Source: Bacillota bacterium | GTDB lineage: Bacteria > Patescibacteriota > Patescibacteriia > Patescibacteriales > UBA12465 | Reading direction: 5' to 3' | NCBI GenBank assembly: GCA_050259635.1 | Contig: JBLNBA010000003.1 | Location: forward strand, 1 to 47,399 | DNA: 47,399 bases | Shown here: one piece after another, positions 27,830 to 45,098 of the stretch | Layout: every line of letters begins with the position of its first letter | Position numbering within the stretch: the stretch's first letter is position 1 | The notes under the pieces: generated by a model | Database searches by the model: none | What the model saw: the letters and a program-made list of their open reading frames with translations, nothing else | What the model was told of the DNA's origin: nothing | Made by a program: the position numbers and the translations under genes

Positions 27830-27922
27830 AACATTATTTATTGATTAATATTAGCATCACTTATGCCAAAGTTCAATTTTCGCTACAAAAAATAGCCCCT
27901 ATTTCAGGGCTATTTACATCTG

Positions 27923-28622: not shown

Positions 28623-28694
28623 GCCCTTGTAGTTTAATGGATAGAACGCAAGATTGCGGATCTTGTAATCCAGGTCCGATTCCTGGCGGGGGCA
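28623..28694 (+). tRNA. tRNA-Arg with anticodon GCG and a non-canonical T loop
   Basis: Folded by hand. The acceptor GCCCTTG/CGGGGGC includes two G-U pairs. The D arm is GTTT-AATGGATA-GAAC. The anticodon stem CAAGA/TCTTG closes the loop TTGCGGA. The T arm is CCAGG-TCCGATT-CCTGG and the discriminator is A. No CCA is encoded. Confidence 0.75.
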
Positions 28695-28705
28695 CTAGAA
28701 TATTT

Positions 28706-28736: not shown

Positions 28737-30803
28737 ATGCTACTATCCCTTCCCTTGTCTTCCCTGAGCAGGGTCGGCAAGACTACCGCCAATTCACTTC
28801 ATAAGCTCGGTCTGGAGACCGTTTCCGACCTCCTTTTCTATTTCCCTTTCCGCTATGAAGATTATAGCCAGACCTCCCCTATCGGGAACATCGAGGCGGG
28901 CATGAACGTGAGTATCACTGGCACCATTGAGATGATAACGAACAAGCGCAGCCTCCGCCAGCGCCGTCAGCTTACAGAAGCCTTGGTTAGCGATGAAACC
29001 GGGATGATAAAGGTGGTCTGGTTCAACCAACCCTTCATCGCCCAAAACCTCAAAGCCGGAGATTTGGTTTCTCTGGCCGGTAAGGCGGCCGAAAGCTACG
29101 GCCAGCTCTCTTTGGTTTCTCCCCAATACGAAAAGGCCTCCTCCCAAGGGCTAATCCATACCCAAGGCCTCATTCCCATATACCATCTCAATTCCGATCT
29201 CAGCCAAAAGCAGCTGCGCTTTCTCATCAAGCAAGCCCTCCCAGCCAGTGATAGTCTGGAAGAGTGGCTTCCAGCTGATCTAATCAGCAAATTAGGGCTC
29301 CTGCCTCTCAAGGAAGCGATAAGGCAGGTGCATTTTCCCGAGAGCTTAGACCTCGCTCAGGCAGCCAGGAGGCGCTTGGGCTTCAGCGAGCTTTTCTTGA
29401 GACAGCTCCGCTCCCAAAGCCTCAAGCACCAGCTAAAGAATAAGCAAGCGCCCAAAGTTTCTTTCCAGGAATTACTTACCCGCAAATTCGTCTCTTCCCT
29501 TCCTTTCGAGCTCACTAAGGGCCAGAAACAGGCCGCTTGGGAAATACTGCAAGATATCGATCGAGAAGCGCCGATGTCCCGCCTTTTAGAAGGAGATGTC
29601 GGTTCTGGAAAGACTGTGGTCGCAGCCATGGCCCTCCTCAATGCGGCCGCCAACCGTTACCAAGCCGCTCTCATGGCCCCGACCGAGATCCTTGCCTCCC
29701 AGCATTATGAAAGCCTCAAGAAACTCATCGCTTCTTTCAATATTAAAATCGCTCTCCTCACCGGAAGCCAAGCAGAAGCTACTTTCGACCTGCCAAAAAC
29801 CAAGAAAGAACGGAAAGAAGCGATCATAAAAGAAGCCGAAATTATCATCGGGACGCAAGCCCTCATCCAGGATTATGAAATTCCCCGCCTCGCCTTGGTC
29901 ATTGTAGACGAACAGCATCGTTTCGGCGTACGCCAACGCCAGAAGCTCCAAAGGAGCGGCGGCGGCCTCTGGCCGCACTTCCTTTCCATGACCGCCACCC
30001 CTATCCCCCGTTCTCTGGCACTGGCGATCTACGGCGACCTGGATCTTTCCCTCATCCGCGAATTACCCAAAACGAGGAAGCCCATCATCACCAGGGTCGT
30101 ATCCGCCCAGGACCGGGACGATGCCTATGCTTTCATCAGGAAAGAGATAGACAAAGGGCGGCAAGCTTTCATCATCTGTCCCTTGGTGGAGGAATCGGAT
30201 AAGCTCGGGGCCAAATCAGCCACCGCGGAATATCGCAAGCTCAAACGCGACATCTACCCGGATCTTGAAATCGGCCTCATCCATGGCAAACTCAAAAGCG
30301 CCGAGAAAGAAAAAACGATGAAAGAATTCGCCGAAGGAAAAACCAAGATCTTAGTAGCCACCGCCGTGGTTGAGGTCGGAGTTGATGTCCAAAATGCCAG
30401 CGTCATGCTGATAGAAGGAGCGGAAAGATTCGGTTTGGCCCAGCTCCATCAGTTCCGCGGACGCGTAGGCAGAGGAGAGCACCAGTCATACTGCCTGCTC
30501 ATGACCAGCTTGGAAGAACAGAGCCCAAAGACGGCCGAACGTCTTCGTGCCTTGAGCAAATACAGCGACGGGCTTTCCTTATCTAAGATCGATCTTGACC
30601 TGCGCGGCTCGGGAGATATCTATGGCCTAGTCCAAAGCGGCTTTCCCGAACTCAGAATCGCATCCCTGTTCGACTACGAGGCGATTAAATCAGCCCAGAA
30701 AGCAGCCGAGGAGCTCATATCCTCGGACCCCGGCCTGGACAAGCATCCGTTAATCAAGGAGAAGCTAGCTGAAGCCCCGGAAGGAGAGGCCCACCTGGAG
30801 TGA
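28737..30803 (+). CDS. recG: ATP-dependent DNA helicase RecG
   Basis: N-terminal wedge region LSRVGKTTANSLHKLGLETVSDLLFYFPFRYED, then the helicase motifs GDVGSGKT, VDEQHRFG, TATPIPRS and QLHQFRGRVGRG. The gene ends with TGA. Confidence 0.95.
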   Translation: MLLSLPLSSLSRVGKTTANSLHKLGLETVSDLLFYFPFRYEDYSQTSPIGNIEAGMNVSITGTIEMITNKRSLRQRRQLTEALVSDETGMIKVVWFNQPFIAQNLKAGDLVSLAGKAAESYGQLSLVSPQYEKASSQGLIHTQGLIPIYHLNSDLSQKQLRFLIKQALPASDSLEEWLPADLISKLGLLPLKEAIRQVHFPESLDLAQAARRRLGFSELFLRQLRSQSLKHQLKNKQAPKVSFQELLTRKFVSSLPFELTKGQKQAAWEILQDIDREAPMSRLLEGDVGSGKTVVAAMALLNAAANRYQAALMAPTEILASQHYESLKKLIASFNIKIALLTGSQAEATFDLPKTKKERKEAIIKEAEIIIGTQALIQDYEIPRLALVIVDEQHRFGVRQRQKLQRSGGGLWPHFLSMTATPIPRSLALAIYGDLDLSLIRELPKTRKPIITRVVSAQDRDDAYAFIRKEIDKGRQAFIICPLVEESDKLGAKSATAEYRKLKRDIYPDLEIGLIHGKLKSAEKEKTMKEFAEGKTKILVATAVVEVGVDVQNASVMLIEGAERFGLAQLHQFRGRVGRGEHQSYCLLMTSLEEQSPKTAERLRALSKYSDGLSLSKIDLDLRGSGDIYGLVQSGFPELRIASLFDYEAIKSAQKAAEELISSDPGLDKHPLIKEKLAEAPEGEAHLE

Positions 30804-30879
30804 CTTGACAAACTTACCGAAAATATATAATATGGCGGTATTGTAACTTAACATATTGTTTAACCAAAAAAGACAGAAA

Positions 30880-31329
30880 ATGATTTATCAAGCGTCTTAC
30901 CGGGGCCAGAAAATTGTTTTCCATAAGGAAAACATATTTGTAGAAAAGAAAAGTATAATAATAAAGTCACCTCGAGTCTGCCTGGAGGAAGACGAAAAGA
31001 AAATCTTTAATGGATTCCATCAAGGAGTTGAAATCTGCTTCGGTAGAGAAAATCTCTATAAAGAGCAGGAAAAAATCGTTGTAAAATACGCCAGGAACTG
31101 CGATAGCACCTCGGACCGCCCCGTCCCTTCAACGATAGCCATTAAAGATATATTATTGCCTGAGGCAGAAAAACAATTGATCAGAGAAATCATGAATCAG
31201 CATATGCCGCTTCCCGAGCGCATCCCGCTTGACGAGCTGAATATGCACGCAGATGCTCTTTTTAGCATTAAACAATATTATAAAAAACAAACGGAAAAAA
31301 GACACCGCCGACGTCTAGCTAAGGCATAA
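30880..31329 (+). CDS. hypothetical protein
   Basis: I prefer the ATG at 30880; the track start at 30856 is TTG. A short internal repeat is visible (KIVFHKENIFVEKKSIIIK / EICFGRENLYKEQEKIVVK), and the C-terminus is basic. Confidence 0.5.
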   Translation: MIYQASYRGQKIVFHKENIFVEKKSIIIKSPRVCLEEDEKKIFNGFHQGVEICFGRENLYKEQEKIVVKYARNCDSTSDRPVPSTIAIKDILLPEAEKQLIREIMNQHMPLPERIPLDELNMHADALFSIKQYYKKQTEKRHRRRLAKA

Positions 31330-31346
31330 AACAAGTAAAGAAATCA

Positions 31347-31371
31347 ACCTTCCCCTCTAGGAAGGTTTTTT
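31347..31371 (+). terminator. intrinsic terminator after 30880-31329
   Basis: ACCTTCC (31347-31353) pairs with GGAAGGT (31360-31366), followed by a T-run. Confidence 0.8.
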
Positions 31372-31373
31372 AT

Positions 31374-31400
31374 ATAAAAAAAGACTTCTCATGGAGAAGC
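31374..31400 (-). terminator. intrinsic terminator after 31429-31659
   Basis: CTTCTC (31385-31390) pairs with GAGAAG (31394-31399). The A7 run at 31374-31380 gives a U-tract on the minus strand. Confidence 0.6.
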
Positions 31401-31428
31401 CGTTTTTAATTTTTTTTCGAAAGAGCTA

Positions 31429-31659
31429 TCAGCCTATCATCGGCATAACCCGCTTGGAAGCGAAGAAAGCAGAGATGATGAGGGATATCATGATAACGCA
31501 GTTTACCGGATTCATGGCAAATATCATTATACTGCCGGTGTAAGGGGTACCATCAAAGATGACTGAGGCGAAAGAGATTAACGCAAGAAAAATGATAATG
31601 CCAGAAATTATTCCAAGAACAAACAATACAACTGATGAAATGTCGATAAACTTTTTCAT
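31429..31659 (-). CDS. small two-TM membrane protein
   Basis: 76 aa, hydrophobic, with an ATG start and a downstream terminator. Confidence 0.5.
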   Translation of the reverse strand: MKKFIDISSVVLFVLGIISGIIIFLALISFASVIFDGTPYTGSIMIFAMNPVNCVIMISLIISAFFASKRVMPMIG

Positions 31660-31758
31660 GATCTATAGGTTTATATGAAATGAACAAGCGTTAACTATGG
31701 TAAAATAATAGCACATATAATATAAAATGTCAATATGTGCCATCTCTCTATCTATTTT

Positions 31759-33108
31759 TTAGGCTAATAATTCAGCAAGTTCTCCTAAATTCTTTATCCT
31801 TATAAGCTTCAATTTGCCTCCTTTGTAATCCGTCCCCTCCGGCACGACCGCACTCTTGAACCCAAGCTTCTCCGCTTCTTTCAGGCGCTGCTCCAAGCGG
31901 AAGACCGGCCTCAGCTCGGCTCCCAAACCTATCTCGCCGATGAAAGCCGTACCGACCGGCAGGGCCTTATTAAGATAAGAAGAAATGATAGCGGCACAGA
32001 CAGCCAGATCCAAAGCGGGATCATTAATCTTGAGACCGCCCACCACGTTCAGGATGATGTCCCTGGTAACCAGGTTTATCTTGCTCAATCTCTTAGCGAT
32101 TACAGCGCTTAGTACCTGCAAACGATTTAGGTCGAAACCGCTGGCCTTCCTCTGCGGATAACCGAAGATAGTCTTCGTCACTAGAGCTTGGATATTTACT
32201 AAGAAAGGACGCGTGCCTTCCAGAACGCAACCGATCGCCGATCCTGGCGCCGTTTCCATGGCCGCTCCCAAGAAGGCAGAACTTGGATCCTTGGCTTCCA
32301 CGAAACCTTTGCCGGTCATCTCAAGGACGCCCAGCTCATTCACGGAACCAAAACGGTTCTTACTGGCACGAAGGAGGCAATAACTGCTTCCGGGCTCATT
32401 CTCCAAAGATAAGACCGTATCGACAATGTGTTCCAAGGATTTAGGGCCGGCAAGTTGGCCGTCCTTCGTGATATGTCCGATCAAAAGCACGCTGATACCC
32501 TTTTCCTTGGCCAGTTCGAGGAATCTCACCGCCACCGCCCGGATCTGGCTCAAGCTGCCAGCTTCCGAAGGGATGAGCGAAGAATATATCGTCTGGATGG
32601 AGTCTACCACCATCAAGGCGGGCTTCACTTTTTCCGCGGCTGAGGCAATCTTCTCCACGCCAGTATCGCCGATAAAGCGCAACCTGGTAAGATCGCAGCC
32701 GAGGCGCTCTAAGCGAGACTTTACCTGGACCGCGGATTCTTCTCCGCTGACATACAATATTTCCCCTTGCCGACTTAATTTATCCGCCAATTGCGCCGCT
32801 AATGTGCTCTTCCCGATTCCCGGCTCCCCGCTTAAGAGCAAGAGCGATCCGGGAAGGAGGCCTCCGCCCAAAACGCGGTCTATCTCCTCCCAGCCGCTCT
32901 GCACTCGCACCTCATTACCGCCTTTAAGGCCCCGGAGATCGATAACATCGGCTTCACCCGCTTTCTTCGCTTCTTCTTTTTTCTCGCTCTTCGCATCCAA
33001 AGTCTCTTCTTCCAGCGTTCCCCAAGAACCGCATTCTAAGCAACGCCCGCTCCACTTAGGGAACTGGGCGTCGCAATGGGAACAAGTATATACCTTCTTT
33101 ATTGCCAT
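31759..33108 (-). CDS. radA: DNA repair/recombination protein RadA (Sms)
   Basis: N-terminal zinc finger CSHCDAQFPKWSGRCLECGSWG, Walker A GEPGIGKST, the KNRFG motif (ASKNRFGS) and a Lon-protease-like C-terminal domain. I place the start at ATG 33106-33108, 2 nt after the upstream TAA. The track start at 33123 is TTG. Confidence 0.95.
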   Translation of the reverse strand: MAIKKVYTCSHCDAQFPKWSGRCLECGSWGTLEEETLDAKSEKKEEAKKAGEADVIDLRGLKGGNEVRVQSGWEEIDRVLGGGLLPGSLLLLSGEPGIGKSTLAAQLADKLSRQGEILYVSGEESAVQVKSRLERLGCDLTRLRFIGDTGVEKIASAAEKVKPALMVVDSIQTIYSSLIPSEAGSLSQIRAVAVRFLELAKEKGISVLLIGHITKDGQLAGPKSLEHIVDTVLSLENEPGSSYCLLRASKNRFGSVNELGVLEMTGKGFVEAKDPSSAFLGAAMETAPGSAIGCVLEGTRPFLVNIQALVTKTIFGYPQRKASGFDLNRLQVLSAVIAKRLSKINLVTRDIILNVVGGLKINDPALDLAVCAAIISSYLNKALPVGTAFIGEIGLGAELRPVFRLEQRLKEAEKLGFKSAVVPEGTDYKGGKLKLIRIKNLGELAELLA

Positions 33109-33110
33109 AG

Positions 33111-33725
33111 TTATTCGAGCCAATACGCTCCATCTACCAGCCAGCGTCCATTCTCACGGACGAAGACGAGCAGCAGATCCTGATTATAATTATTCTCTCC
33201 TCCTTGTCCTCTCACTTCCCGGCGCTGGGTCCCCACTACAATTTCCGCCTTGCCGGCGTTGGCATCGAAACTCTTGGCCTCGGTACTCACCGCAATCGTT
33301 GTCATGCCGTAATAACTGCCGTCATAGGCATTATCCTGTCTCATCTTAGCCACGTATCCGTCCGCCCATTCGCGCATATTGGCGGTCATGAAGATATCCA
33401 AATCATCAAAATTGCTGTAATCGGATTGATTGGAAAATGATCCCAGCCTTTCAGCAAAAGAAGCCGCCAACTTGGAAACGTCCGCCGAATCGGTTTCATG
33501 TGGCGCTTCCTTGCTGATATCATATTGCTGATAATTGCGCGGCTTGTCTCCCGGAGTAATATCACTCTCTTCCGGTGTCGGCAATTGCCCGGTGGTGGTT
33601 GCCCCAGGATTATCAAGCGGGGACGGCGTTTCCGGTTTCTTGAGGAATATGAAATAGACGATAGCGGCAATAATCAGTAAGCCGATGACGATGACCAGTA
33701 ATCCGGTCTTTTGGCGGTTGTTCAT
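33111..33725 (-). CDS. bitopic protein with VirB8-like architecture (N-terminal TM plus NTF2-like C-terminal domain)
   Basis: TM helix GLLVIVIGLLIIAAIVYFIFL and a Pro/Thr-rich linker. The C-terminal ...KAEIVVGTQRREV...QDLLLVFVRENGRWLVDGAYW is typical of a cone-shaped alpha+beta fold. It lies directly downstream of virB4. The call rests on architecture only. Confidence 0.4.
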   Translation of the reverse strand: MNNRQKTGLLVIVIGLLIIAAIVYFIFLKKPETPSPLDNPGATTTGQLPTPEESDITPGDKPRNYQQYDISKEAPHETDSADVSKLAASFAERLGSFSNQSDYSNFDDLDIFMTANMREWADGYVAKMRQDNAYDGSYYGMTTIAVSTEAKSFDANAGKAEIVVGTQRREVRGQGGENNYNQDLLLVFVRENGRWLVDGAYWLE

Positions 33726-33731
33726 ATATTT

Positions 33732-35630
33732 TTATGATTGCTTTTCTTCTTGCATGCTTTCTTCAAACTCTCTCTTCGCTTCCTCGATCTCCAGGAGCTG
33801 GCGAGGATCGGAAGTGATGAGCTGGTCTTCCGTATAGGAGGCCACCACCTTCATCGCCACATGCTTATTGCCGGCAAAGAAGATGCCTTCCCCGATGCCG
33901 CACTCGAGCAAGAGATATTTTTCGCCTTCAGTGAGAAGGAAGGTCTTCTGGACCAAGTCGATCGCCGCCGGAGACTGCTTGAGCAGGATCTGCATCGAAG
34001 AGTTGGTAACGATCGCCTGGCCGTATGGCGAGGTGAGAAAGTCATTCACGTCCTGGGTAATAGTGGTGACGCCGAGATAGTACTTGCGGCAGCGCTTCAC
34101 CAGGGCATAGACGAACTTGGCGCTGTCTTCATTCTGCATCATCCACCAGGCTTCATCTATCACCAAAATGCGCTGACGCATTTCGCTGCGGACCGTATTC
34201 CAGATGTAATTGATAATGGTATATATGGCGAGAGGCCTCAGTTCATCCTCCAGATCACGGGTAGAGAAACAGACAAGCTGGTTATCCATCTCGACATTGG
34301 TGGGACTATTCAGGAGCCCGGAAAAGGTGCCTTCAGTGAACTTCTTCAAGCGCAAGGCGAGATCCGCTCCGCCCTCCATGCCTTCCAAGACTTGTTCGAA
34401 ATCCGACATGATCGGCGGTTCGATGACGGAAAGGTCCGAATCCGGAGTAATATCCTTCTTGGCATAAGTCTCAAGCAAGGCGCGATCGACGATCGAGTCT
34501 TCATCATAGCTCAGCTTGCCCAGCATCAGGCGGACCAGACCCTTGAGGGTGATGACGGCGCTGCGGATAATATCTTTCGGCTTGGTCTCACCGGCGATTC
34601 CCCGCGGGAGATCAAAAGGATTGATCTTATTCTCGGAAGCCAACGATATCTTGATATAAGTCCCCCCTACGGCTTCCGCCAAATGCTTATATTCATATTC
34701 CGGATCGATAACGATGACTTCCGTCCCCAGCATCAAAGCCCGGAGGATCTCCAGCTTGATAGCATACGATTTTCCGGCACCGGAAGTGGCAAAAACGACA
34801 GAATTCGCATTCTGCAGGGAGAAACGATCAAAGAGGATAAGGCTGTTATTATGCCGGTTAATCCCGTATAGGACGCCGCGGTCGCTGGTCAATTCGCTGG
34901 AAATAAAAGGGAAAGAGGAAGCGATCGGCGACGAATTCATGTTGAAAGTAATATAGAGCTCATCATTGCAAAGCGGCAAAGTGGAATTGAACCCCTGTTC
35001 GGATTGGAAATACACGCGGCGGGAATATACCAGCCTGGAACCAAAGATATCTTCCACCTGGTCGGACATGCGGTCCAACTCTTCCTGATTATCCGCATAA
35101 AGGGTGACGTAAAGCGAAAACTGAAAGAATTTCTCGGTTCCCTGGGTCAGAGCGTCGCGCAGAGCTTCAATGTCCCGCAAAGCGGTTTCGCGCAGCGGAT
35201 CGCGGGCCGCTCCCTTTTCAGCGTCAGAAATGATCTGAGCCTCCAAAGTACCGACCTTGTTCTTCAGTTGCTTCAGGATGATGGCGCTCTTCACCGGATA
35301 GAAGAACATCGAGACGTCAAAGGTAAGGTTCAAATTGATGATCGGAGCGAACCAGCCAACACTGATATAGCGGGGATAGCTGATAACGAAAAGCGTACGG
35401 ACCAGCTTCGAACCCAGCATGAGATGGTTGGGTTTCACTTGCAAGCTGGCCGGTGAGATAATATCCCGCACCGTCAAGACGCCGCGGCGGAAGGCTTTCT
35501 CTTCCTCGATGATCTCCCGAGTGAGGCGCGGATCCGCTTCGATCGGCTTCTCCTTCCCTTTGGACGCCAAAGTGATCGGGGTGTTCAGCCCGATCTTCTG
35601 CTTGTCCTCATTCTTATTGAAATTGATCAT
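33732..35630 (-). CDS. virB4: VirB4/TrbE-family type IV secretion ATPase
   Basis: Walker A FATSGAGKSYAIK and Walker B RILVIDEAWWMM. The N-terminal domain (ISYPRYISVGWFAPII) is of VirB4 type. The size is 632 aa. Confidence 0.8.
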   Translation of the reverse strand: MINFNKNEDKQKIGLNTPITLASKGKEKPIEADPRLTREIIEEEKAFRRGVLTVRDIISPASLQVKPNHLMLGSKLVRTLFVISYPRYISVGWFAPIINLNLTFDVSMFFYPVKSAIILKQLKNKVGTLEAQIISDAEKGAARDPLRETALRDIEALRDALTQGTEKFFQFSLYVTLYADNQEELDRMSDQVEDIFGSRLVYSRRVYFQSEQGFNSTLPLCNDELYITFNMNSSPIASSFPFISSELTSDRGVLYGINRHNNSLILFDRFSLQNANSVVFATSGAGKSYAIKLEILRALMLGTEVIVIDPEYEYKHLAEAVGGTYIKISLASENKINPFDLPRGIAGETKPKDIIRSAVITLKGLVRLMLGKLSYDEDSIVDRALLETYAKKDITPDSDLSVIEPPIMSDFEQVLEGMEGGADLALRLKKFTEGTFSGLLNSPTNVEMDNQLVCFSTRDLEDELRPLAIYTIINYIWNTVRSEMRQRILVIDEAWWMMQNEDSAKFVYALVKRCRKYYLGVTTITQDVNDFLTSPYGQAIVTNSSMQILLKQSPAAIDLVQKTFLLTEGEKYLLLECGIGEGIFFAGNKHVAMKVVASYTEDQLITSDPRQLLEIEEAKREFEESMQEEKQS

Positions 35631-35638
35631 ACGATTCC

Positions 35639-36325
35639 TTAGTTCTTCTCCACCCTGAGCTTGTCTATTTCGGCCAGGCTCTGGTTCTTGGACGTCTCAG
35701 GGTTATAGGTTTTGTAATACAATTCGATCAGGCTCTGGGTATCCAAGCGAGCGACAGATACGCCCATCGATTCCAAGCCACCGATGACGCTCTCTAAGCG
35801 GCGATTGAGCATTTCCTTATAGCGCTGAAAACCCTTCTCTTTCAGAGAAATCGAAGTCGCCGGCTTGATTGCCTCGCCCAAAAGCGTAAAGAAACCCTTA
35901 TGCTTATCCGAAAGCGGATTATACGGGACGACGACGTAGAAGCGCTTGTTCATGATCTTTCCGATAGAAGTCAGCTCCTTGATATATTCCACATACTCCG
36001 CCGTTTGCATCTTGAGAAGCTTATTCAATTGCTGCTTTTCCTTCTCTTTAAGGTAATTAAGGTAATTATCAATATCCAGTTCGCGCGATTGGATCACGAT
36101 CTCCAGCATGAAGCCGAGATTGTTCAAGAACATCACGTAGGAATTTATCACAGCGTTCTGTTCATCCTCACTTTTCAAGGCGAAATTAATGCTCGATACC
36201 AGCAAGACCGCGCGCAAAGTACCGTCCTTCATGATGACGACGTCGTCCTTTATCTCCGCGATATCCAGATACTGCTGAGTCGAGGAGTTCACTTTGTTAC
36301 GCACCAAGCTATTGGTTTCTGGCAT
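35639..36325 (-). CDS. hypothetical protein resembling the N-terminal domain of Gram-positive VirB4 (ConE/Orf16-type), no ATPase domain
   Basis: IAEIKDDVVIMKDGTLRAVLLVSSINFALKSEDEQNAVINSYVMFLNNLGFMLEIVIQSR follows the pattern I know from the N-termini of Firmicute conjugation ATPases. No Walker motifs are present. Confidence 0.4.
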   Translation of the reverse strand: MPETNSLVRNKVNSSTQQYLDIAEIKDDVVIMKDGTLRAVLLVSSINFALKSEDEQNAVINSYVMFLNNLGFMLEIVIQSRELDIDNYLNYLKEKEKQQLNKLLKMQTAEYVEYIKELTSIGKIMNKRFYVVVPYNPLSDKHKGFFTLLGEAIKPATSISLKEKGFQRYKEMLNRRLESVIGGLESMGVSVARLDTQSLIELYYKTYNPETSKNQSLAEIDKLRVEKN

Positions 36326-36330
36326 ATAGA

Positions 36331-36759
36331 TTAATTATTTCCTTCCTCACCGCGATATCTTCCCTTCGTATCCACCACCAGGGCGAGTTCCGCCAATCGT
36401 GAATTCTGGAAAGGATCTTTCGGTTTAGATGCTTCCGCCGGCTTAGCTGTTACCTCGATATCCGGTGTTATGGGATTTTGAGCCTGAGCCCAAACACGGA
36501 GCTTGGGACGGCGGAAAGTCTGGATAAAATTTAGGATGAAAAAATGGAAGGGGCGGCCGTTGACCTTCACGAACGAAAAGATGCCGGCGATCATGGATAA
36601 GATGATGGCGATGGTAAGGAAAAGAGCGAAATCGAACAACTTGTAGCTCAAACCGATGATTATCGCCGTACTCAAGAAAATCAAAAACTGGCGCGTCGTT
36701 ATCGGTCCGATAATCTTGCTTTCCACGTCGATGAATTGAGGTACGGTGAATTGCTGCAT
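36331..36759 (-). CDS. PrgI-family (VirB3-like) small membrane protein
   Basis: MQQFTVPQFIDVESKIIGPITTRQFLIFLSTAIIIGL followed by a second TM is the PrgI-type signature. It is positioned upstream of virB4, as in Gram-positive T4SS. Confidence 0.55.
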   Translation of the reverse strand: MQQFTVPQFIDVESKIIGPITTRQFLIFLSTAIIIGLSYKLFDFALFLTIAIILSMIAGIFSFVKVNGRPFHFFILNFIQTFRRPKLRVWAQAQNPITPDIEVTAKPAEASKPKDPFQNSRLAELALVVDTKGRYRGEEGNN

Positions 36760-36760
36760 A

Positions 36761-38305
36761 TTAAAACATGAGCTGAGAATTCATGGCTACCACGGCTTCG
36801 ATTTCTTCCATCGTCAGGGTTTCTTTCTTTTCCGCCTGGCGGGCAGCCACAGCATCGCGCAAAGTCACTCCTTTCATCACCGCTTCTTGCGCCAAGCGCA
36901 GATAGAGACGGTTTACCGGGCTCTGTCGCCAAGCCTTTACTCCCTCGACCATGCGGTCATAGCCATCCTTCTCGAGAAGACGGATCTTCATTACGATCTT
37001 TGCGCAAATTTCTTGAGGGTCCTTGCCTAAGCGGCGAAAATTCAAGACATCGAGAAAACGGAGTTCTTCCAAAGGACCCATTACCTTGGGTTTCAACTTC
37101 ACATCCTCGATCTTAGGGCGGGATTCGCTGGAGGCGGCCGGACGCACTGCCGTCTGGGTCTTCGCTACCGCTTCCATCACCGCTTCTTCCAGATGATGGG
37201 ATCCAGCCACCGCCGCCGGAGCGATAGTCGGCTTAGGAGCGTTTTGCTTGAATAATTTCCCCCATAAGCCCTTCATTTCATCGGGCTTCTTGGCAGTCGG
37301 AGGAACGATGCTCGTTTTGGCAAGGTTAGACGGCTTATTCTCAGCTATGGATTTAGCGGCAACCGGAGCAGGAGTAGGCTTAACAGGCTCCGCCTTCGAT
37401 GCCGGCGCTATAGGCTGCTTTGCTGCTAAAGGCTTCTGTTCTGTCTTCATCGGAACGGCCGTTACTGGGACGGGAACATTAGGTTTGATGGACTCCGCTT
37501 CCTTTTCCGGCACCCCTAACACCGGGATATTATCCGGCGCTTCAATCGCTATCTGTTTCTTCGGAGCGGAAATTTCATGAGCAGTATCGTCTTTAGCGGC
37601 CTTGAATCTATCCGCCAGCGCCGCCGGCGGCTTTATCTCCCCCCGAGCTAATGCTGACTTGAAATCATAAGCAGGAACATCATTCTTGCGGATAAGTTCA
37701 TCAATGGGATTGACCGATTTTTCGGGCTGCGGCTGCTCGACAACAGGCCGGGGAGATTCAGGTTTCTTATCCACCGGAACGAAACCCGCAGGGCGATCGA
37801 GAGCGCGGATCAAACGATCCGCGGCGGCAGGATCCAAAGACAAGCCACCTTCATTGGCCGGGCGCACCAAGGCATCGCGGGCATCGATCTTGGAACGTAC
37901 TCCCCGACGATACGTATTTAGGATCAGGCGACAGCGGACGACTAGGTCTTGAGAAGCCAATATGACTCCATTCTCTTTCATCAAAACTTCGATTTCTTTA
38001 TCTTCCGTATTTAAAGGTGCGGCAGGCTTGAGACCGAGATAGGCGGCCACCAAAAAGAATAATTTTTCCTGTAGTTCTCGAGCCAACGACTGTGCCTTCT
38101 CCGGAGCGAGAGATAATTCGGCCACGAAATAAGAAGGCAAGTCTCGAACAGGAATCTGTTTGATCATCACCAGCATAACGACCATCGCCAGGCTGATGCC
38201 GTATTTGGATTCCAAAGACGACAAAATCTCCATCGCCGCGGGCGAGGAGACTTTTTCTCTCAATTCTTTAGGTAACTTATTGAATTGTTGCAAGTAATCG
38301 AACAT
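36761..38305 (-). CDS. hypothetical protein, paralogous N-terminal domain shared with 38463-39392, Pro/Ala-rich middle
   Basis: The N-terminus FNKLPKELREKVSSPAAMEILSSLESKYGISLAMVVMLVMIKQIPVRDLPSYF aligns with the neighbour's FRKLPRELKELFGGPDAMESILEIEERYRINTSFVVVLVAIGDLSVQDVASYL. A long PA/PV/PK low-complexity linker follows. Confidence 0.6.
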   Translation of the reverse strand: MFDYLQQFNKLPKELREKVSSPAAMEILSSLESKYGISLAMVVMLVMIKQIPVRDLPSYFVAELSLAPEKAQSLARELQEKLFFLVAAYLGLKPAAPLNTEDKEIEVLMKENGVILASQDLVVRCRLILNTYRRGVRSKIDARDALVRPANEGGLSLDPAAADRLIRALDRPAGFVPVDKKPESPRPVVEQPQPEKSVNPIDELIRKNDVPAYDFKSALARGEIKPPAALADRFKAAKDDTAHEISAPKKQIAIEAPDNIPVLGVPEKEAESIKPNVPVPVTAVPMKTEQKPLAAKQPIAPASKAEPVKPTPAPVAAKSIAENKPSNLAKTSIVPPTAKKPDEMKGLWGKLFKQNAPKPTIAPAAVAGSHHLEEAVMEAVAKTQTAVRPAASSESRPKIEDVKLKPKVMGPLEELRFLDVLNFRRLGKDPQEICAKIVMKIRLLEKDGYDRMVEGVKAWRQSPVNRLYLRLAQEAVMKGVTLRDAVAARQAEKKETLTMEEIEAVVAMNSQLMF

Positions 38306-38365
38306 GGGAAATGGGGATGTATAAGAAAATAGCTCAGCCGAAAATCTACTGCGGGCATTATCTTC

Positions 38366-38374
38366 ATTTTAGCA
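38366..38374 (-). promoter_or_regulatory. extended -10 promoter element candidate for the 38305 transcription unit
   Basis: The minus strand reads TGCTAAAAT (TGn plus TAAAAT). It lies between the terminator at 38429-38456 and the ATG at 38305. Confidence 0.4.
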
Positions 38375-38428
38375 TATATGGCCAAAAATGGAAAAGATGA
38401 TTAGGGCTATAAATAGACTGAATACTAA

Positions 38429-38456
38429 ATAAAAAACCGCCCCAGACGGGGCGGCT
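38429..38456 (-). terminator. strong intrinsic terminator inside the T4SS-like cluster
   Basis: CCGCCCC (38437-38443) pairs with GGGGCGG (38448-38454) around an AGAC loop. The A6 run at 38431-38436 gives a U-tract on the minus strand. Confidence 0.8.
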
Positions 38457-38462
38457 TCCAAT

Positions 38463-39392
38463 CTAATTTTTTACGGCGGCAGTCATCCGCAACCGGTCTA
38501 ATTCCTGTTTTATAACCTTATATTCCAGGCTGTCCGAGGGATAGTCGTTTAGAGCTGCTTGGAGCTTGGAGGCTTGGGACTCTTCTGCGGGCACAATTTC
38601 CGGCTCAGGTTTCTCTTGGATAGGCCTGGATATAGATTTCCTCTCCGGTAACGGTGCCGGATCTTCCTTATGAGTGGTTTCCAAAGGGATAAAATTCCAC
38701 AGCTTAACCGGCTTCTTATCCGTTATTTCATCGAAGTAAGCGACATTGCGATAAAAACGTAAAGCCCGGCCCAAAATGATCTTATCCGCTTCCGCCAACT
38801 GGGAAGCATTAGGTGAATCGCTCAGATAATGGGCCAGGACGAGCTCATCGAAATTGCCGGCCCCGCTGGCAGCTGCGAAATCCTTAATCCAATTAGCCAG
38901 CGTCGGCTGCGCCGAGCCTTTTCCCGAAATAATTTTTTTCTCCCCGATCTTGATCGGATGGTTGAGCAAGGCGTTTTCCAATTCCGCAAGGAGCTCCGGG
39001 CGTTTAGTCAGGCTGCTAAAAAAATGTTGATTGAAATTCTCGGCGGCCTGGGGATCCGACAATAAATCCAAAAGCTTTTCCTTTGCTTCCGTGATCCCGT
39101 CAAATTCCTTCCCCGGCAAAAGCAAAGCCAGAGAAAATATTTCCCTAAGCAGTATGCTGGATATTTCTACCGCATCTTCTTCGCTTAAGCCATGTTTCAA
39201 TTGCAGATAAGAGGCCACATCCTGGACAGACAGGTCGCCGATGGCCACCAGGACCACGACAAAACTAGTATTGATTCGATATCTTTCCTCTATCTCCAAG
39301 ATGCTTTCCATGGCATCGGGTCCGCCAAAAAGTTCTTTTAATTCCCGAGGAAGCTTGCGGAATCTTTCCAAGCATTGAGCGATATATTCCAT
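38463..39392 (-). CDS. hypothetical protein, paralog (N-terminal domain) of 36761-38305
   Basis: See the alignment of N-termini given for 36761-38305. The size is 309 aa, with no TM segment. Confidence 0.6.
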   Translation of the reverse strand: MEYIAQCLERFRKLPRELKELFGGPDAMESILEIEERYRINTSFVVVLVAIGDLSVQDVASYLQLKHGLSEEDAVEISSILLREIFSLALLLPGKEFDGITEAKEKLLDLLSDPQAAENFNQHFFSSLTKRPELLAELENALLNHPIKIGEKKIISGKGSAQPTLANWIKDFAAASGAGNFDELVLAHYLSDSPNASQLAEADKIILGRALRFYRNVAYFDEITDKKPVKLWNFIPLETTHKEDPAPLPERKSISRPIQEKPEPEIVPAEESQASKLQAALNDYPSDSLEYKVIKQELDRLRMTAAVKN

Positions 39393-39396
39393 AGTA

Positions 39397-42084
39397 TTAT
39401 GCTTTTATCTCTGGGTTATCGAAATCGGAGACCTTGGGCAGTTGGTTATATATCACATCCATCTCCAGAGGCGTCTCCGCTTTGTCGGCGCCTAGGATCG
39501 GCAGGACGCCGCCTGTCTCCTTGCCGCCGGAAGCAACCTTGCTCCCCAAGCTCTTAAACCAGCGGGCGAAATGGGCTCTAGTGGCCACTTTCGATAAGTC
39601 ACCGCCTTTAGGAGCGGCAAACTTAAGTTCCAGATCATTAAGCTTTTCGGCAAAATTGTCTAGAGAGGCCGTAGCCTGAGAGGCGTCAATCTTAACAGCC
39701 ATTCCCTTTTCTTCTTCATCAAACACGATATCTTGCGGTTTCTTGGTTTCCGGCTTCTCTTTCAAGATATCGTCTATCTGGCTTCTATCGGAGCGAGCTG
39801 CATAATTGCGGGTTTCAATGATCTTCTGAGTAGCGGATTCGACATCCTTTTCATTATCTATTCCCTGGGCATGGATGGATTCATGGATCATCGTTTCCTT
39901 CACATCGCCGACCTTGTAATCGGCTGCGCTGGAATTAACCAATTGGACGTTGCTCAACGCTTTCGGGTCGGCAAGGCGGGTTTGAGCTTCTTTCAAATTA
40001 GATAGCCTGACCTCTTCTCCCTGAGTACGTATTGGTTTTGCTTCTAGCGAGAAGATTTCCGATCCGATAACGGAAGACATCTTTTCTGCAATCTTTCCGA
40101 TCAAGGTCGGGTCGGTGGTATTGATGCCTCTCGTATTGCGCCAATCCTTATCCCCTTCCGCTCCTTTCTTTATCTCCGGGATACCAAGCTTATCAAAATC
40201 CACCGCCATCACCGAGTTTCCCTTGGCAAAGCCATTGATGGCCGTGTTGCCATTTCCGCGCGGCTGTTCCTGATTTTCAAGCGGCACGCTTTCATGCTCT
40301 TCAACCACTTTATTCTTAGATACTAAGTAGTCTGTCCGATGTTTTCCTTCACGACGAAGTTCTTCTAAATCATCCGGCGAAGGCGGACGCGTCGCGTTCA
40401 TGTAGCTTCCGTAAGTATTTTCGCTATACCCTGGATCCCTTCGATCTATATTTTGCATGGTATTTCCCTTAGAATCCATCCCAGGCACAAAGGTAGCGAG
40501 ATGAGCATCCTGCCTTCCATAATTGTAAGCACCTCTTTCATCGGAGTTCCTCTGGACATAAGATAAGGCGCGCCCTCTCAAGGCAGCCCCAGATTTTCCA
40601 ATCGCATGCCATTCGGCATCGCTCAATTTTCCCATCGTTTCTTTGCTCATCCCCGCTAAAGCATCGGCTATCTTGACAGGATTCCCGAGAGCACTTGGCA
40701 TCTTATCTGCAGCCTTGCTCTTCAATGCCTGACCCATGGCAGTTATTCCCCCTCCTTCCTTAACATAACGGCCGATTACGCGAGCATCTTTCAGATCATT
40801 AATCTTTGCTTCGGCTTTATCAGAGACTTTCTTTTGCGCCTTATTCAATCCCACTAAGCTTCTGGTAGCCAAACCTCGGACGCCAGTAGCGGCCAAGGCC
40901 TTGCCCAGCACTCCGGATTGGCTAGCGACGGTTCCAAGCTTATCTTTCAGCTTAACCTTCTTCGCTAAACCTAACCCTACGCTTGTGGCTCCGCCCACTA
41001 GCGCACCCTTACCGAAAGCCATGGCTCCTGAGCCCATCTTATTCAGCCTGCTCATTCCTTTGCCAGCGATGGAACCGGCCGACCCGCCGATCTCCTGCGC
41101 GATTTTCAAGCCGCCGATCAGCATGCCGATGGCGAGCACGAACTTAATCAAGGCACTCGGACGAGAGGCTTCAGTTACAGACACCGGCTCGTCGCTTAAC
41201 TGGCCGATATCGTTCGAAACCTCATTATCTGCCGCCGTATAATTAACATCATTACCGGTCTGCAGCATCATCAAAGAGAGCCAAATAAAGAAAGCCAAGA
41301 CCGGACCGACAATGAGGTTCTTCGTAAAATCAGACCACCATTTGGAAGCATATGTTCCTCCCCCAGGAAAAGCGGAAAGCAAGTATGCTAAAGGCGAAAG
41401 CACGACATAGATCCAGATCATCACGAGCCGCATGACCAGGATCATGAGCATAGTGGTTATCACGACCAAGCTAATGATCATGTATATCAAGCCCAAGACA
41501 TACGCCCCGATAATCGCCCAGAAACCGGCATCTTCCGAACTGTTTGCAAAAGTAATGACATCCCTGATCCCCAGCATGTCAATCAGGTTGCCCCCGGCAA
41601 TATCTTTGAAAGAGTTGACGAAGGTAAGCATGACAATCTGGGTAACATCGATCAGGAGACCGCAAATCGTCTTGGAAAAATTCACCAGGATCGCCATTAA
41701 AACCAGCTTCGGGAGCCATTTCCTATAGCTGTAATTCTCGTAATTCAAGATGGTAGAGAAAGCAATGATGAGAAGCACCACCACGAAAAACATGTTGGCG
41801 AGGTCACGCACGATCCGCCAGCCCTCGATGACTCCCTGCTGATTGATAAAATCCTGGTAAGAAGCGACCAGTATCAAGCACTTCACTACCAGGACCAGGA
41901 TCTGTCCTAAAGCCCAGATTATAGCGCCAATTATGGACCCTAGAATCTCTCCCGCCCACTCCGCGGCGGCAAAGGCGTGAGGGGCAAGCAGAAAACTGGC
42001 GAATATTAATATTACCGCCGGAATCAGAGTCGCTGCGCGCGTCATCTTGACCTTACCCTTTAACATGTTTAAAAATCTCAACAT
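39397..42084 (-). CDS. VirB6/TrbL-like polytopic membrane protein with a ~560-aa soluble C-terminal extension
   Basis: Signal-like MTRAATLIPAVILIFASFLLAPHAFA, then about 7 TM helices (aa ~40-330) in a TrbL-like arrangement, then a long Gly/Ala/Lys-rich and charged C-terminal region. Possible ATG starts are at 42084, 42066 and 42045. Confidence 0.5.
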   Translation of the reverse strand: MLRFLNMLKGKVKMTRAATLIPAVILIFASFLLAPHAFAAAEWAGEILGSIIGAIIWALGQILVLVVKCLILVASYQDFINQQGVIEGWRIVRDLANMFFVVVLLIIAFSTILNYENYSYRKWLPKLVLMAILVNFSKTICGLLIDVTQIVMLTFVNSFKDIAGGNLIDMLGIRDVITFANSSEDAGFWAIIGAYVLGLIYMIISLVVITTMLMILVMRLVMIWIYVVLSPLAYLLSAFPGGGTYASKWWSDFTKNLIVGPVLAFFIWLSLMMLQTGNDVNYTAADNEVSNDIGQLSDEPVSVTEASRPSALIKFVLAIGMLIGGLKIAQEIGGSAGSIAGKGMSRLNKMGSGAMAFGKGALVGGATSVGLGLAKKVKLKDKLGTVASQSGVLGKALAATGVRGLATRSLVGLNKAQKKVSDKAEAKINDLKDARVIGRYVKEGGGITAMGQALKSKAADKMPSALGNPVKIADALAGMSKETMGKLSDAEWHAIGKSGAALRGRALSYVQRNSDERGAYNYGRQDAHLATFVPGMDSKGNTMQNIDRRDPGYSENTYGSYMNATRPPSPDDLEELRREGKHRTDYLVSKNKVVEEHESVPLENQEQPRGNGNTAINGFAKGNSVMAVDFDKLGIPEIKKGAEGDKDWRNTRGINTTDPTLIGKIAEKMSSVIGSEIFSLEAKPIRTQGEEVRLSNLKEAQTRLADPKALSNVQLVNSSAADYKVGDVKETMIHESIHAQGIDNEKDVESATQKIIETRNYAARSDRSQIDDILKEKPETKKPQDIVFDEEEKGMAVKIDASQATASLDNFAEKLNDLELKFAAPKGGDLSKVATRAHFARWFKSLGSKVASGGKETGGVLPILGADKAETPLEMDVIYNQLPKVSDFDNPEIKA

Positions 42085-42088
42085 ATCC

Positions 42089-42679
42089 TTAATCCAAATT
42101 GAAAAGACTTTTTAAAATTTCAATAGCGGAACGGAGAGGATTGCTTACCACTCCCATTATCATCGCTATTACCGACAAAATACCCAGGAACAGGAATAGC
42201 AACGCCAGAGTGACAGCGGCAACCCCGATAGTCTCTCCCATTCTTTGAGAGCTGCCTTTCGCATCTCTTTGCTGTACGGTCATGCCGGGCTTATCTCCCC
42301 ATTCAGCCCCTAAAGGCGCGAAGAAACGCTCGCCAAACACATTCCGCAAAAACAAATGGACGTATACGTAAAGGAAAGAAAAACCGAAAGTGGCCACAAT
42401 ATTTTTCCAGGCCGATTGTAACATGCGGCTTGATCCGGTGCTCAGGCTTGCTTGGGATGGAGCTTGTTTTATCGACCCTTCTGCATCCACACCTTTAGAA
42501 CCAAACTTCCGCCGCTGGCCCCGGCTGGATTGCCAATCTGCTGAGGAACCGGCATTAAATCCCCTGACTCGCCGGCGCAACTCCCCCGCCCGATCCGTGC
42601 TAGCTTCAGGCTCTTCCTCTTGGTCCGTCTCTTTTTCCTCAATGGGGCTCGCCTGCAGGAGGCGATCGTCAATAGACAT
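42089..42679 (-). CDS. hypothetical membrane protein (disordered charged N-terminus plus two C-terminal TM helices)
   Basis: The TM helices are NIVATFGFSFLYVYVHLFL and IGVAAVTLALLFLFLGILSVIAMIMGVV. It is the first gene of the cluster. A VirB2-like role is only a guess from the two-TM layout. Confidence 0.5.
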   Translation of the reverse strand: MSIDDRLLQASPIEEKETDQEEEPEASTDRAGELRRRVRGFNAGSSADWQSSRGQRRKFGSKGVDAEGSIKQAPSQASLSTGSSRMLQSAWKNIVATFGFSFLYVYVHLFLRNVFGERFFAPLGAEWGDKPGMTVQQRDAKGSSQRMGETIGVAAVTLALLFLFLGILSVIAMIMGVVSNPLRSAIEILKSLFNLD

Positions 42680-42801
42680 AAAATGCGCCGAAGCTTATGG
42701 TTCGTTACCTATATTTTACTATAACCACAGGGAAAAGGAAAGGAAATCTCTCTTTGGCTTGCCTTTACTTTTCGGCTTCTATAAGGTAATTTTATAGTAT
42801 A

Positions 42802-44469
42802 ATGACCAGTTATATGGATAATGCCAAAGGAAAGCTCATCGCCCGCCTCTTTCCGGACCGATTAATCCCGCCGGAGGAATTGGAGACCAAATATCCCAAG
42901 AGAAATCTTCCGGAAGGAGCCATGGTTACCAGGGTAGCCCCCAGCCCCACCGGTTCCGTCCACTTTGGAGGACTGTATGCCTCCCTGATCTCCGAGCGCC
43001 TGGCTCATCAGAGCCAAGGAGTCTTTATCTTGCGCATCGAAGACACCGACAAGAAGCGTGAAATCGAAGGTGCGGCCGGTCTTTTCTCGGCTGCCTTGGA
43101 AAGATATGGGATTCTTTTTGATGAAGGCCCCGACAAGACAGGAAAAGAAAAGGGAGAATATGGACCATATAAGCAGAGTGATCGCTCCACCCTGTATCAT
43201 TCATATATTAAGCTCCTTCTCGAGAAAGATCTTGCCTATCCCTGCTTTGCCACACCGGAAGAACTGGAAGAATTAAGATCCCGCCAGGAAGCCTTGGGAC
43301 AGCGAAGCGGCTACTACGGAGAATTTGCCGTCTGGCGCCACAAAAGCCCGGAAGAAGCCCTGGAAGCTCTAGATAAAGGCCTAAAACCGGTAATCCGCTT
43401 CCGCTCACCGGGTGATTTCAACCGCAAGATCAGGATAGAAGATCTCCTCTTGGGAAAACGGGAGATGCCGGAAAACGATCAGGATATCGTCATCATGAAA
43501 ACCGATGGCCTCCCGACATATCACTTCGCCCACGCCATAGACGACCATTTAATGAGAACCACCCATGTCATCCGGGGCAACGAATGGTTCCCCTCCCTCC
43601 CTCTCCACCTCCAGCTCTTCGATGCTTTAGGCTTTGCGCGTCCAGCCTATGCCCACTTGGCCCCCATCCAGAAGATGGAGGAGGGCAAGAAGCGCAAGCT
43701 TTCCAAACGTAAAGATCCCGAAGCCGATATTAACTTCTATCGCCAAGCCGGATATCCAGAAGAAGCAGTGATAGAGTACCTGCTCAATCTGGCCAATTCC
43801 AATTTCGAGGATTGGCGCCGGGAAAACGGGGAGAAGGATAATAGAGAATTCCAGCTAAGCTTCAAGAAGCTCGCTAATTCCAGCGGCCCCCTTTTCGATC
43901 TCACAAAACTTGCGGATATAAGCAAAGACATCGTTGCCCGCCTGGACGCAGAAACACTATTTGTACGCATCCTTGCCTGGGCAAAGGAATTCGATCTCGA
44001 ATTGGCCGAGATGCTAATGAGAGACAAAGAATATGCCATTAAGATTTTGGATATAGAGCGCTCGGGAGTAGATAAGCCCAGGAAAGATATCGGGCGTTTC
44101 GCCGATGCCAAGGATCAGATCTCTTACTTCTACGATGATAAATTTATCCTCTCCCCGGAAATCAGGAAAGAGGCGGAAGAAGGCCTTAATGGAGCTGATG
44201 GATATGCGGCGATATCGGAATTCATGGCTGCATATGATGGAAACGAGGATCCAACAATCTGGTTTGATAAGCTGAAAATAATCGGCGGAAAACATGGTTT
44301 CTCCCCTTCCCCAGCAGAGCTCAAAGCCCATCCGGAAAAATACCAAACCGGAGTCGGTTCGCTAGCCAAGCTGATACGAGTGCTTCTCACCGGGAGGACA
44401 CAAACTCCCAATCTCTGCTACATCATGAGGGTAATGGGGAGAGACAGGATAGAAAATAGATTAAAATAA
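42802..44469 (+). CDS. gltX: glutamyl-tRNA synthetase (class I, GluRS family)
   Basis: TRVAPSPTGSVHFGG (HIGH-region variant), the KLSKR (KMSKS) loop, and RIEDTD and DGLPTYHFAH motifs. Confidence 0.85.
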   Translation: MTSYMDNAKGKLIARLFPDRLIPPEELETKYPKRNLPEGAMVTRVAPSPTGSVHFGGLYASLISERLAHQSQGVFILRIEDTDKKREIEGAAGLFSAALERYGILFDEGPDKTGKEKGEYGPYKQSDRSTLYHSYIKLLLEKDLAYPCFATPEELEELRSRQEALGQRSGYYGEFAVWRHKSPEEALEALDKGLKPVIRFRSPGDFNRKIRIEDLLLGKREMPENDQDIVIMKTDGLPTYHFAHAIDDHLMRTTHVIRGNEWFPSLPLHLQLFDALGFARPAYAHLAPIQKMEEGKKRKLSKRKDPEADINFYRQAGYPEEAVIEYLLNLANSNFEDWRRENGEKDNREFQLSFKKLANSSGPLFDLTKLADISKDIVARLDAETLFVRILAWAKEFDLELAEMLMRDKEYAIKILDIERSGVDKPRKDIGRFADAKDQISYFYDDKFILSPEIRKEAEEGLNGADGYAAISEFMAAYDGNEDPTIWFDKLKIIGGKHGFSPSPAELKAHPEKYQTGVGSLAKLIRVLLTGRTQTPNLCYIMRVMGRDRIENRLK

Positions 44470-44484
44470 AACAGAGACAAGAAA

Positions 44485-44508
44485 AGAGCCCCCAAAGGGC
44501 TCTTTTTT
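44485..44508 (+). terminator. intrinsic terminator of gltX
   Basis: AGAGCCC (44485-44491) pairs with GGGCTCT (44497-44503), followed by a T-run. Confidence 0.85.
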
Positions 44509-44559
44509 ATGAGAATTTCCAAAATTAAAAGAAGCTGGCTTAGAGCTTCTTTATAGTTC

Positions 44560-44913
44560 TTAGACTTCGTTTAATAGCCTAATTTCTTCTTCCAAATAAG
44601 ATTTTTTGACACTTGCTAAATCAAGTTCCTGCTGTACATCTTCTAATTCGTCAGAAAGTTTTTTCTGAAAATATTTGTGAATTTTTTCTTCAGATATTTT
44701 GCCGGCAGGAGCCAATACTAACAAAAATAGGTAGAGTAGTGTTGTAAGACAAATACAAGGGAAAACAATCTCACTGTTGATAATAAAGCCTTCTGCGAGA
44801 AGGATGATAGGTAAAGGAATAATGGCAAATTTAAACTGTCGAGATTTCTTTTCTATCCGGGCACTTCCAATTGCGCTCTCCTTTAATCGTCTGATTAATT
44901 CTTCTTTTTCCAT
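44560..44913 (-). CDS. hypothetical membrane protein
   Basis: 117 aa with two central TM helices flanked by charged helical ends. ATG start. Confidence 0.5.
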   Translation of the reverse strand: MEKEELIRRLKESAIGSARIEKKSRQFKFAIIPLPIILLAEGFIINSEIVFPCICLTTLLYLFLLVLAPAGKISEEKIHKYFQKKLSDELEDVQQELDLASVKKSYLEEEIRLLNEV

Positions 44914-45098
44914 CTTAGTCTGTTTTTTAAGTTTGTACTGCTAATTTTAAAGTTCTATTCTAACTCTGCAGTATAATGAATACCTAAATATTTGTCAATA
45001 GCCATTTATTTGCCTTATATTATACCTCTATTTACAGAGACTTCGTATAATTTGTCCTTTTTTTGTGATACAATATAATACAGTAAACTAAGATTTTT

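Follow-up and report, generated by a model that had tools for sequence, protein, structure and literature searches.

What kind of machine is encoded by a gene cluster that resembles a type IV secretion system (T4SS), has no relaxase beside it and seemed to contain four proteins of no recognisable family? The question is raised by positions 33111-42679 of contig JBLNBA010000003.1 (assembly GCA_050259635.1), which was analysed as a whole and is referred to here as the window (47,399 bp, 44 open reading frames (ORFs)). A sequence-only reading had proposed a resident, non-conjugative chromosomal machine in an organism of the candidate phyla radiation type. Our analysis makes it highly likely that the locus represents a known kind of system, the chromosomal, relaxase-less T4SS of the Patescibacteria clade, which is derived from the MPF_FATA class and forms a minimal machine for a single-membrane envelope. 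The resident, non-conjugative character proposed for it is supported by profile hidden Markov model (HMM) matches, by synteny in 80 species and by housekeeping genes that lie between its two halves in some of them. All eight co-directional minus-strand ORFs were present where the sequence-only reading had placed them, and they are given here in the order of transcription, together with associated signals; genes without a family name are called by the length of their products.

42713..42741, minus strand: promoter-like element TTTCCT-N17-TAAAAT, before the first unit (196-895-309)
42089..42679, minus strand: gene of the 196-aa protein, with an acidic disordered N-terminus, a conserved hydrophobic core and a C-terminal transmembrane (TM) helix
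39397..42084, minus strand: gene of the 895-aa extended VirB6-like protein, from TM scan and architecture
39850..39885, minus strand: HExxHxxGxxxE motif, residues 734-745 of the 895-aa protein, from homologue alignment
38463..39392, minus strand: gene of the 309-aa soluble protein, a paralogue of the 514-aa protein
38432..38459, minus strand: intrinsic terminator closing the first unit, a hairpin with a T-run
38366..38394, minus strand: promoter-like element TTTCCA-N17-TGcTAAAAT, before the second unit
36761..38305, minus strand: gene of the 514-aa soluble protein, with domains from an AlphaFold2 (AF2) model
36331..36759, minus strand: PrgI/VirB3-like gene, 142 aa, from Pfam PF12666 and a two-TM hairpin
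35639..36325, minus strand: TrsD-like gene, 228 aa, a separate VirB4 N-terminal domain, from NCBIfam matches
33732..35630, minus strand: VirB4 ATPase gene, 632 aa, from NCBIfam conju_CD1110, Pfam and Walker motifs
33111..33725, minus strand: VirB8-like bitopic gene, 204 aa, from AF2 and Foldseek
31759..33108, minus strand: radA, from Pfam, co-directional with the T4SS genes

The motor carries most of the evidence for this identity. The 632-aa protein matched NCBIfam conju_CD1110 (E = 3.7e-107, 359 bits against a cut-off of 325) as well as Pfam P-loop_TraG (3.6e-28), and has the Walker A motif SGAGKS and the Walker B motif VIDEAW, so that its designation as VirB4, first made from the GAGKS and VIDEAW motifs, was confirmed. 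Its match spans positions 179-733 of the 752 in the conju_CD1110 profile, with the extreme N-terminal domain missing. Precisely this missing part is supplied by the 228-aa protein, which matched N-terminal positions of four NCBIfam models: VirB4_plasma (2e-11, profile 97-233), TrsD (3.4e-8), VirB4_CagE (1.6e-4, profile 5-174) and CD1110 (4e-4, profile 2-102). We therefore assign the 228-aa ORF, from these profile matches, as a detached, TrsD-like N-terminal domain of VirB4, comparable to TrsD of pGO1. Its score with the TrsD model (33.6 bits, curated cut-off 200) marks it as a homologue and not as a member of NF041427 proper. One orthologue bears a precomputed match to the TraC-like family PF26593, while a search of PDB sequences with the family profile returned nothing usable. 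No similarity was found between the 228-aa and 632-aa families with hhalign, and by these comparisons the two proteins are complementary parts of VirB4 and not paralogues. The third component adjoining the motor, the 142-aa PrgI/VirB3-like protein, passed its Pfam cut-off as had been expected (PF12666, E = 4.7e-8, 33.9 bits against 27) and has two TM segments that form a hairpin.

To place the locus among its relatives, one genome per GTDB species was scanned with the VirB4 protein, which gave 486 relatives, and the loci of the best 80 were compared. A contig index returned no record with an identical VirB4 sequence. These 80 are all metagenome-assembled genomes of Patescibacteria, many of them named Candidatus Falkowbacteria, with VirB4 identities of 79-92%; Falkowbacteria, to which the present organism is related, are counted under class ABY1 by Quinonero-Coronel et al. 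2025 (PMC12102498). The split of VirB4 was found in 80/80 loci with a median gap of 9 nt and is therefore ancestral, which rules out a frameshift as its origin. The block 514-PrgI-TrsD-VirB4-VirB8-radA is kept in 76-80 of the 80 species, so that the comparison of synteny proposed with the original reading came out in favour of a conserved core. Median protein identities were 86% for VirB4 and 77% for the TrsD-like protein (33732-36325), compared with 67% for RadA and 58% for RecG (28737-33123). Because the motor proteins exceed both housekeeping proteins in identity, we conclude from the alignments that the motor is under strong purifying selection.

The 204-aa protein gave no Pfam match, and its profile found nothing among PDB sequences. 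In an AF2 model from a 57-sequence alignment (pLDDT 86), a disordered linker joins the TM helix to an NTF2-like domain, in which three helices lie against a four-stranded sheet. Its best Foldseek match was the VirB8 homologue CagV (6iqt, E = 2.6e-5, TM-score 0.71), followed among the leading matches by TrwG, R388 8rtd_Y, TraE, PrgL 7aed and TraH 5aiw, with these VirB8-type matches interleaved with other NTF2-like proteins. A VirB8-type fold is thus predicted, in agreement with the VirB8-like architecture noted before. A match to TraM (E = 0.0027) was rejected as compositional, being confined to the TM and linker region.

The 895-aa protein consists of a signal-like helix and approximately seven TM segments in residues 1-345 (bases 41050-42084), followed by a hydrophilic tail of approximately 550 aa. 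A profile of its N-terminal domain collected 22,523 cluster representatives at E ≤ 1e-3, and among 49 of these relatives that were scanned, TrbL (PF04610) was the sole recurrent Pfam family, with eight matches (best E 9.8e-5). A precomputed PF19590 tag on a few homologues was not reproduced with a Pfam scan. Architecture and these weak, indirect TrbL matches point tentatively to an "extended VirB6"-like protein, and to this extent the VirB6/TrbL assignment of the sequence-only reading holds. The positive-inside rule would place the tail in the cytoplasm, since a Lys/Arg-rich stretch directly follows the last TM helix.

This tail differs between species. A module of approximately 200 aa bearing the HExxHxxGxxxE motif is present in 23/31 homologues, with an unrelated tail in the others. 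The H, E, H, G and E of the motif are invariant in 15 diverse homologues, and the module also has invariant G, G, F, L, G and N residues. Its family matches were weak (PDB 3e11, a predicted zincin-like metalloprotease, E = 0.13; Zincin_1, 0.17; SprT-like, 0.18), and the motif is possibly a zincin-like site, the resemblance lying at the level of the motif only.

Of the four ORFs that had been left unassigned, the 228-aa gene is thus accounted for by VirB4, and the 196-, 309- and 514-aa proteins stay without a family, as does the tail of the 895-aa protein. The 514- and 309-aa proteins share an 81-aa N-terminal helical domain (37% identity, E = 5e-13, BLASTP) and their profiles merge into a single family, which identifies them as paralogues at the sequence level. 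The TM scan found no TM or signal segment in either. In its AF2 model, the 514-aa protein has three helical domains (1-90, 100-170 and 410-514) with pLDDT >90 and a disordered Pro/Ala/Lys-rich linker of approximately 230 aa. Foldseek searches of this model against PDB and BFVD gave no significant match (best E 1.9 and 0.65). All 319 homologues of the 514-aa protein are annotated as 'hypothetical', no Pfam family recurs in 56 of them, and the 309-aa protein has no Pfam or NCBIfam match. A match of the 514-aa family to the YeeU/CbeA antitoxin (PDB 2h28, E = 0.009, residues 91-145) had no fold support and was treated as chance. The 196-aa protein combines an acidic, variable, disordered N-terminus with a hydrophobic core (LLKxAWxNLI...LGxEW) and a C-terminal TM helix; neither a recurrent Pfam family nor a VirB2/TrbC match was found in 25 orthologues, and none of the cluster proteins matched VirB2/TrbC. 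The gene of the 514-aa protein lies directly upstream of the PrgI gene in 77/80 loci and that of the 196-aa protein directly upstream of the VirB6-like gene in 32. All three proteins are lineage-specific conserved partners of the T4SS.

The surroundings of the cluster bear on whether it is mobile. A Pfam scan of the 36 ORFs outside the cluster (E ≤ 1e-3) returned ThrRS, a MatE transporter, flavodoxin, RecG, RadA and GltX among others. At the same threshold, no relaxase, type IV coupling protein (T4CP), VirB11, integrase or transposase was found among the ORFs of the window and no recognisable wall hydrolase among these 36, in agreement with what had been read from the letters. Repeats flanking the cluster are short and at chance level, with none resembling att sites. 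Since the window is the whole contig, this search for a relaxase, coupling protein and att sites next to the cluster covered the full contig, and none was found. The only tRNAs of the window lie at 27.9 and 28.6 kb, the nearest approximately 4.4 kb from the cluster. GC content is 0.496 for the cluster against 0.474 for the whole window. At third codon positions, the GC range of the cluster genes (0.52-0.67) encloses that of the housekeeping genes (0.55-0.63); the base composition of the cluster is native, and its likeness to the flanking genes had been noted correctly.

Gaps between the T4SS genes are 1-8 nt, with the exception of a 157-nt spacer (38306-38462) that separates 309 from 514 and opens with a terminator. 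This strong internal terminator, already recognised in the sequence-only reading, was confirmed at 38459..38432 on the minus strand (12-bp stem, seven G-C pairs, T-run), and the hairpin is kept with compensatory stem changes in five close relatives (loci L001, L004, L007 and L013 among them). In roughly half of the loci, the unit 196-895-309 is adjacent. Where 309 and 514 are directly adjacent, the gap between them is <30 nt in approximately 29 loci, which suggests one long operon there. By comparison, the spacer measures 126-276 nt in eight loci, including the closest relatives of the window, and 4-6 kb of metabolic genes (parts of PPDK, MetK, AdoHcyase and PfkB) lie between the two units in seven. 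As the spacing varies in this way, the two-unit layout is specific to this lineage; gene order kept across species, together with metabolic genes between the units, excludes a mobile island.

At the other end, the ATG of radA at 33108 lies 2 nt past the stop of the VirB8-like gene. The start of radA falls within 60 nt of that gene in 63/76 loci (median 13 nt). From this spacing, radA is probably the ninth gene of the transcription unit and the last large gene of the second unit, so that the eight genes delimited originally are all part of the cluster and its extent probably exceeds them. The next conserved neighbour, convergent with radA, is recG in 59 loci.

A sequence of the form TTTCCW-N17-TAAAAT has exactly two matches in the 47.4-kb window, one directly upstream of each unit and both in minus-strand orientation. 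The number expected by chance is 0.03, and two matches were reached in 0/100 shuffles. The element of the second unit lies downstream of the terminator, its -10 block TGcTAAAAT is invariant in five relatives, and it recurs at the matching position in L001, L004, L019 and L047; the first-unit block is likewise conserved in relatives at the matching position. This pattern suggests that the two T4SS units are co-regulated via a common promoter-like element, whose conservation would fit a shared non-consensus -35 or a regulator site.

Just downstream of the second-unit -10 box, a further block, AGATAATGCCCG (38345-38362, minus strand), has been kept in L001, L004 and L007. This candidate operator or 5'-leader element had no match among Rfam families.

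Small ORFs with two or three TM segments follow radA in the same orientation in many species, for example at approximately 14.0-14.5 kb in loci L001, L002, L014, L021 and L025, and are mutually non-homologous. The small ORF after radA in the window (31429-31659, minus strand) lies in a stretch of lower GC, and no relative of it was found in the 80 loci.

These features match systems that have been described. In the survey by Quinonero-Coronel et al., 2,425 VirB4 proteins make up a monophyletic Patescibacteria clade within MPF_FATA of single-membrane bacteria; the T4SS genes are chromosomal, TrsD, PrgI/VirB3 and VirB6 adjoin virB4, VirB8 homologues are almost restricted to ABY1, and ABY1 loci adjoin comF, recG and radA (PMC12102498). 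The present locus resembles these ABY1 systems in being chromosomal and without a relaxase, in its MPF_FATA-type VirB4, in the TrsD-like and PrgI genes by virB4, in its VirB6- and VirB8-like proteins and in having radA and recG as neighbours. It differs from the surveyed systems in that it has no VirB2-like pilin, and the survey has no account of the 514/309 pair or the 196-aa protein, nor of the HExxH tail or the promoter-like element common to both units. In a 2025 review, Patescibacteria T4SSs make up a new branch within the T4SS superfamily (PMC12857230).

The closest functional precedent is in Southlakia epibionticum, whose T4SS was found by transposon sequencing to be essential for epibiotic growth (Wang et al. 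2023, PMC10633639). Its genes SEML1_0006-0019 (strain ML1) have a core in the same order as the present locus, namely a large membrane protein, PrgI, a small hypothetical protein (293 aa in Southlakia) and VirB4, and neither a relaxase nor a coupling protein is recognisable among them. However, Southlakia belongs to the class Saccharimonadia, has an essential array of VirB2-like pilins and peptidase/lysozyme genes by virB4, and no structural VirB8 homologue was detected in it. The Trs system of pGO1/pSK41 (TrsC, TrsD, TrsE; a subclass of MPF_FATA) shares the division of VirB4 function between a small TrsD and an ATPase, and the gene of a VirB3-like protein just upstream, whereas pGO1, a conjugative plasmid, encodes a relaxase, a T4CP and the wall hydrolase TrsG but no VirB6 homologue.

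By analogy with R388 (PMC9259494), the PrgI/VirB3 protein and the TrsD-like domain would dock a VirB4 hexamer at the membrane, and the VirB6-like and VirB8-like proteins would build the channel and collar. ATP hydrolysis by VirB4 would then power assembly and the transport of macromolecules across the single-membrane envelope at host-cell contact. Such a system would have descended from the conjugation apparatus of Gram-positive bacteria and become fixed in the chromosome. Its most likely role, judged from the cultured Saccharibacteria, is epibiotic host interaction. Among possible cargoes, nucleic acid deserves serious consideration because the association of radA with the operon is conserved.

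Several observations weigh against this assignment. The host-interaction role is borrowed from another class of the phylum, and unlike in Saccharibacteria, neither a VirB2-like pilin nor a wall hydrolase was found here or within 10 kb of the loci in the 80 relatives; a search of the same 10-kb intervals for a recurrent small two-TM protein returned none besides PrgI. The 895-aa protein failed the direct test of its family, with no VirB6/TrbL match in Pfam, NCBIfam or PDB sequences, and a tblastn search of 72,556 plasmids with its N-terminal domain had no match either. The search for a relaxase and T4CP covered one 47-kb contig of the genome. Finally, three metatranscriptomes from the source soil had no read on 30500-45000, but the organism reached only approximately 3-4x coverage in the DNA run, so that this null result is no evidence for or against expression.

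The operon link to radA also raises the possibility of a DNA-import machine, comparable to ComB or Ced, that passes single strands to RadA, made from the same transcript, and to RecG, for recombination or nucleotide salvage. The tight spacing of radA here and in most species, the position of recG, the failure to find a relaxase or T4CP on the contig and the comF, recG and radA context reported for ABY1 would all fit such a function. We nevertheless consider it unlikely, while taking it seriously. Gene order in very compact genomes need not mirror function, and Saccharibacteria achieve competence via type IV pili and ComEC, with the T4SS essential without ComEC (PMC12857230); a type IV pilus cluster is also encoded on the present contig. 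Helicobacter pylori ComB and crenarchaeal Ced are, like the present system, T4SS-derived, chromosomal and relaxase-free. However, ComB spans two membranes and includes VirB7, VirB9 and VirB10, and Ced uses CedA/A1/A2, and none of these specific components was found at the locus; the CedB/CedD match reflects the generic ATPase core (CedB, 47 bits against a cut-off of 700).

A bolder version of the import idea sees a T4SS rebuilt in Falkowbacteria from lineage-specific parts, in which the 514/309 pair of cytoplasmic helical proteins would act as substrate receptors that replace the coupling protein, the VirB6 tail would be zincin-like, co-transcription with radA would mark a nucleic-acid import and recombination device, and the whole would be under one shared promoter type. 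We regard this combination as doubtful.

Conjugation could also proceed with a relaxase, T4CP and oriT supplied in trans from elsewhere in the genome. In known systems, the genes for T4CP and relaxase frequently lie at a great distance from virB4, and VirD4-like matches are common in Patescibacteria genomes (PMC12102498). Yet relaxases occur in only 103/3,035 Patescibacteria genomes, the T4SSs of which are like the rest (PMC12102498), and the present locus is conserved by vertical descent, with housekeeping genes interspersed. Because no relaxase or T4CP was found on the contig, inheritance is vertical and relaxases are nearly absent from the phylum, conjugation is very unlikely, and the system is very probably resident in the chromosome and non-conjugative. 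Decay of an integrated conjugative element or plasmid, at which the reduced gene set and several ORFs without a known family might hint, is hardly credible as the origin of the cluster and was rejected on synteny and conservation, given eight intact ORFs in an order kept in at least 76 species, VirB4 and a TrsD-like protein conserved above RadA and RecG, native composition, and no integrase, att site or adjacent tRNA.

As a Patescibacteria-clade T4SS, the locus belongs to a class of machines that are among the few shown to be essential for epibiotic life in a very large, mostly uncultured phylum. The novelty claimed for it was overrated, since the system and its ABY1 radA/recG context were already published (PMC12102498, PMC10633639, PMC12857230), and it adds nothing categorical to the kind described. 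It is a clean, compact ABY1 example, with a core of VirB3, split VirB4 and VirB8, a tight operon link to radA and two units. What is left as new is modest: we found no published description of the 514/309 paralogues and the 196-aa protein as lineage-specific partners, of the HExxH tail module or of the shared promoter-like element. The three conserved proteins are structural targets that bear on how a coupling protein is replaced and on the substrate transported.

Elsewhere in the window, the type IV pilus cluster occupies 225-7073, 26 kb from the T4SS, and comprises two pilins, PilC, PilB, three small bitopic proteins and PilM. An AAA_14/DUF4143 ATPase gene at 8582-9850 has low GC (0.37). A low-GC island (0.32-0.39) at 25000-28000, with ORFs at 25755-26681 and 27242-27829 that have no family matches, adjoins tRNA-Ser (27922-28013) and tRNA-Arg (28623-28695); it may have been acquired as a small islet. 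Three large predicted surface proteins are candidate adhesins: a 690-aa protein with three LamG domains (17434-19506) and two with a Fib_succ_major domain (45099-46022 and 46086-47327). Ku and a three-domain LigD (phosphoesterase, ligase and primase-polymerase) are encoded at 21023-24182 and make up a complete non-homologous end-joining pair in a reduced Patescibacteria genome.

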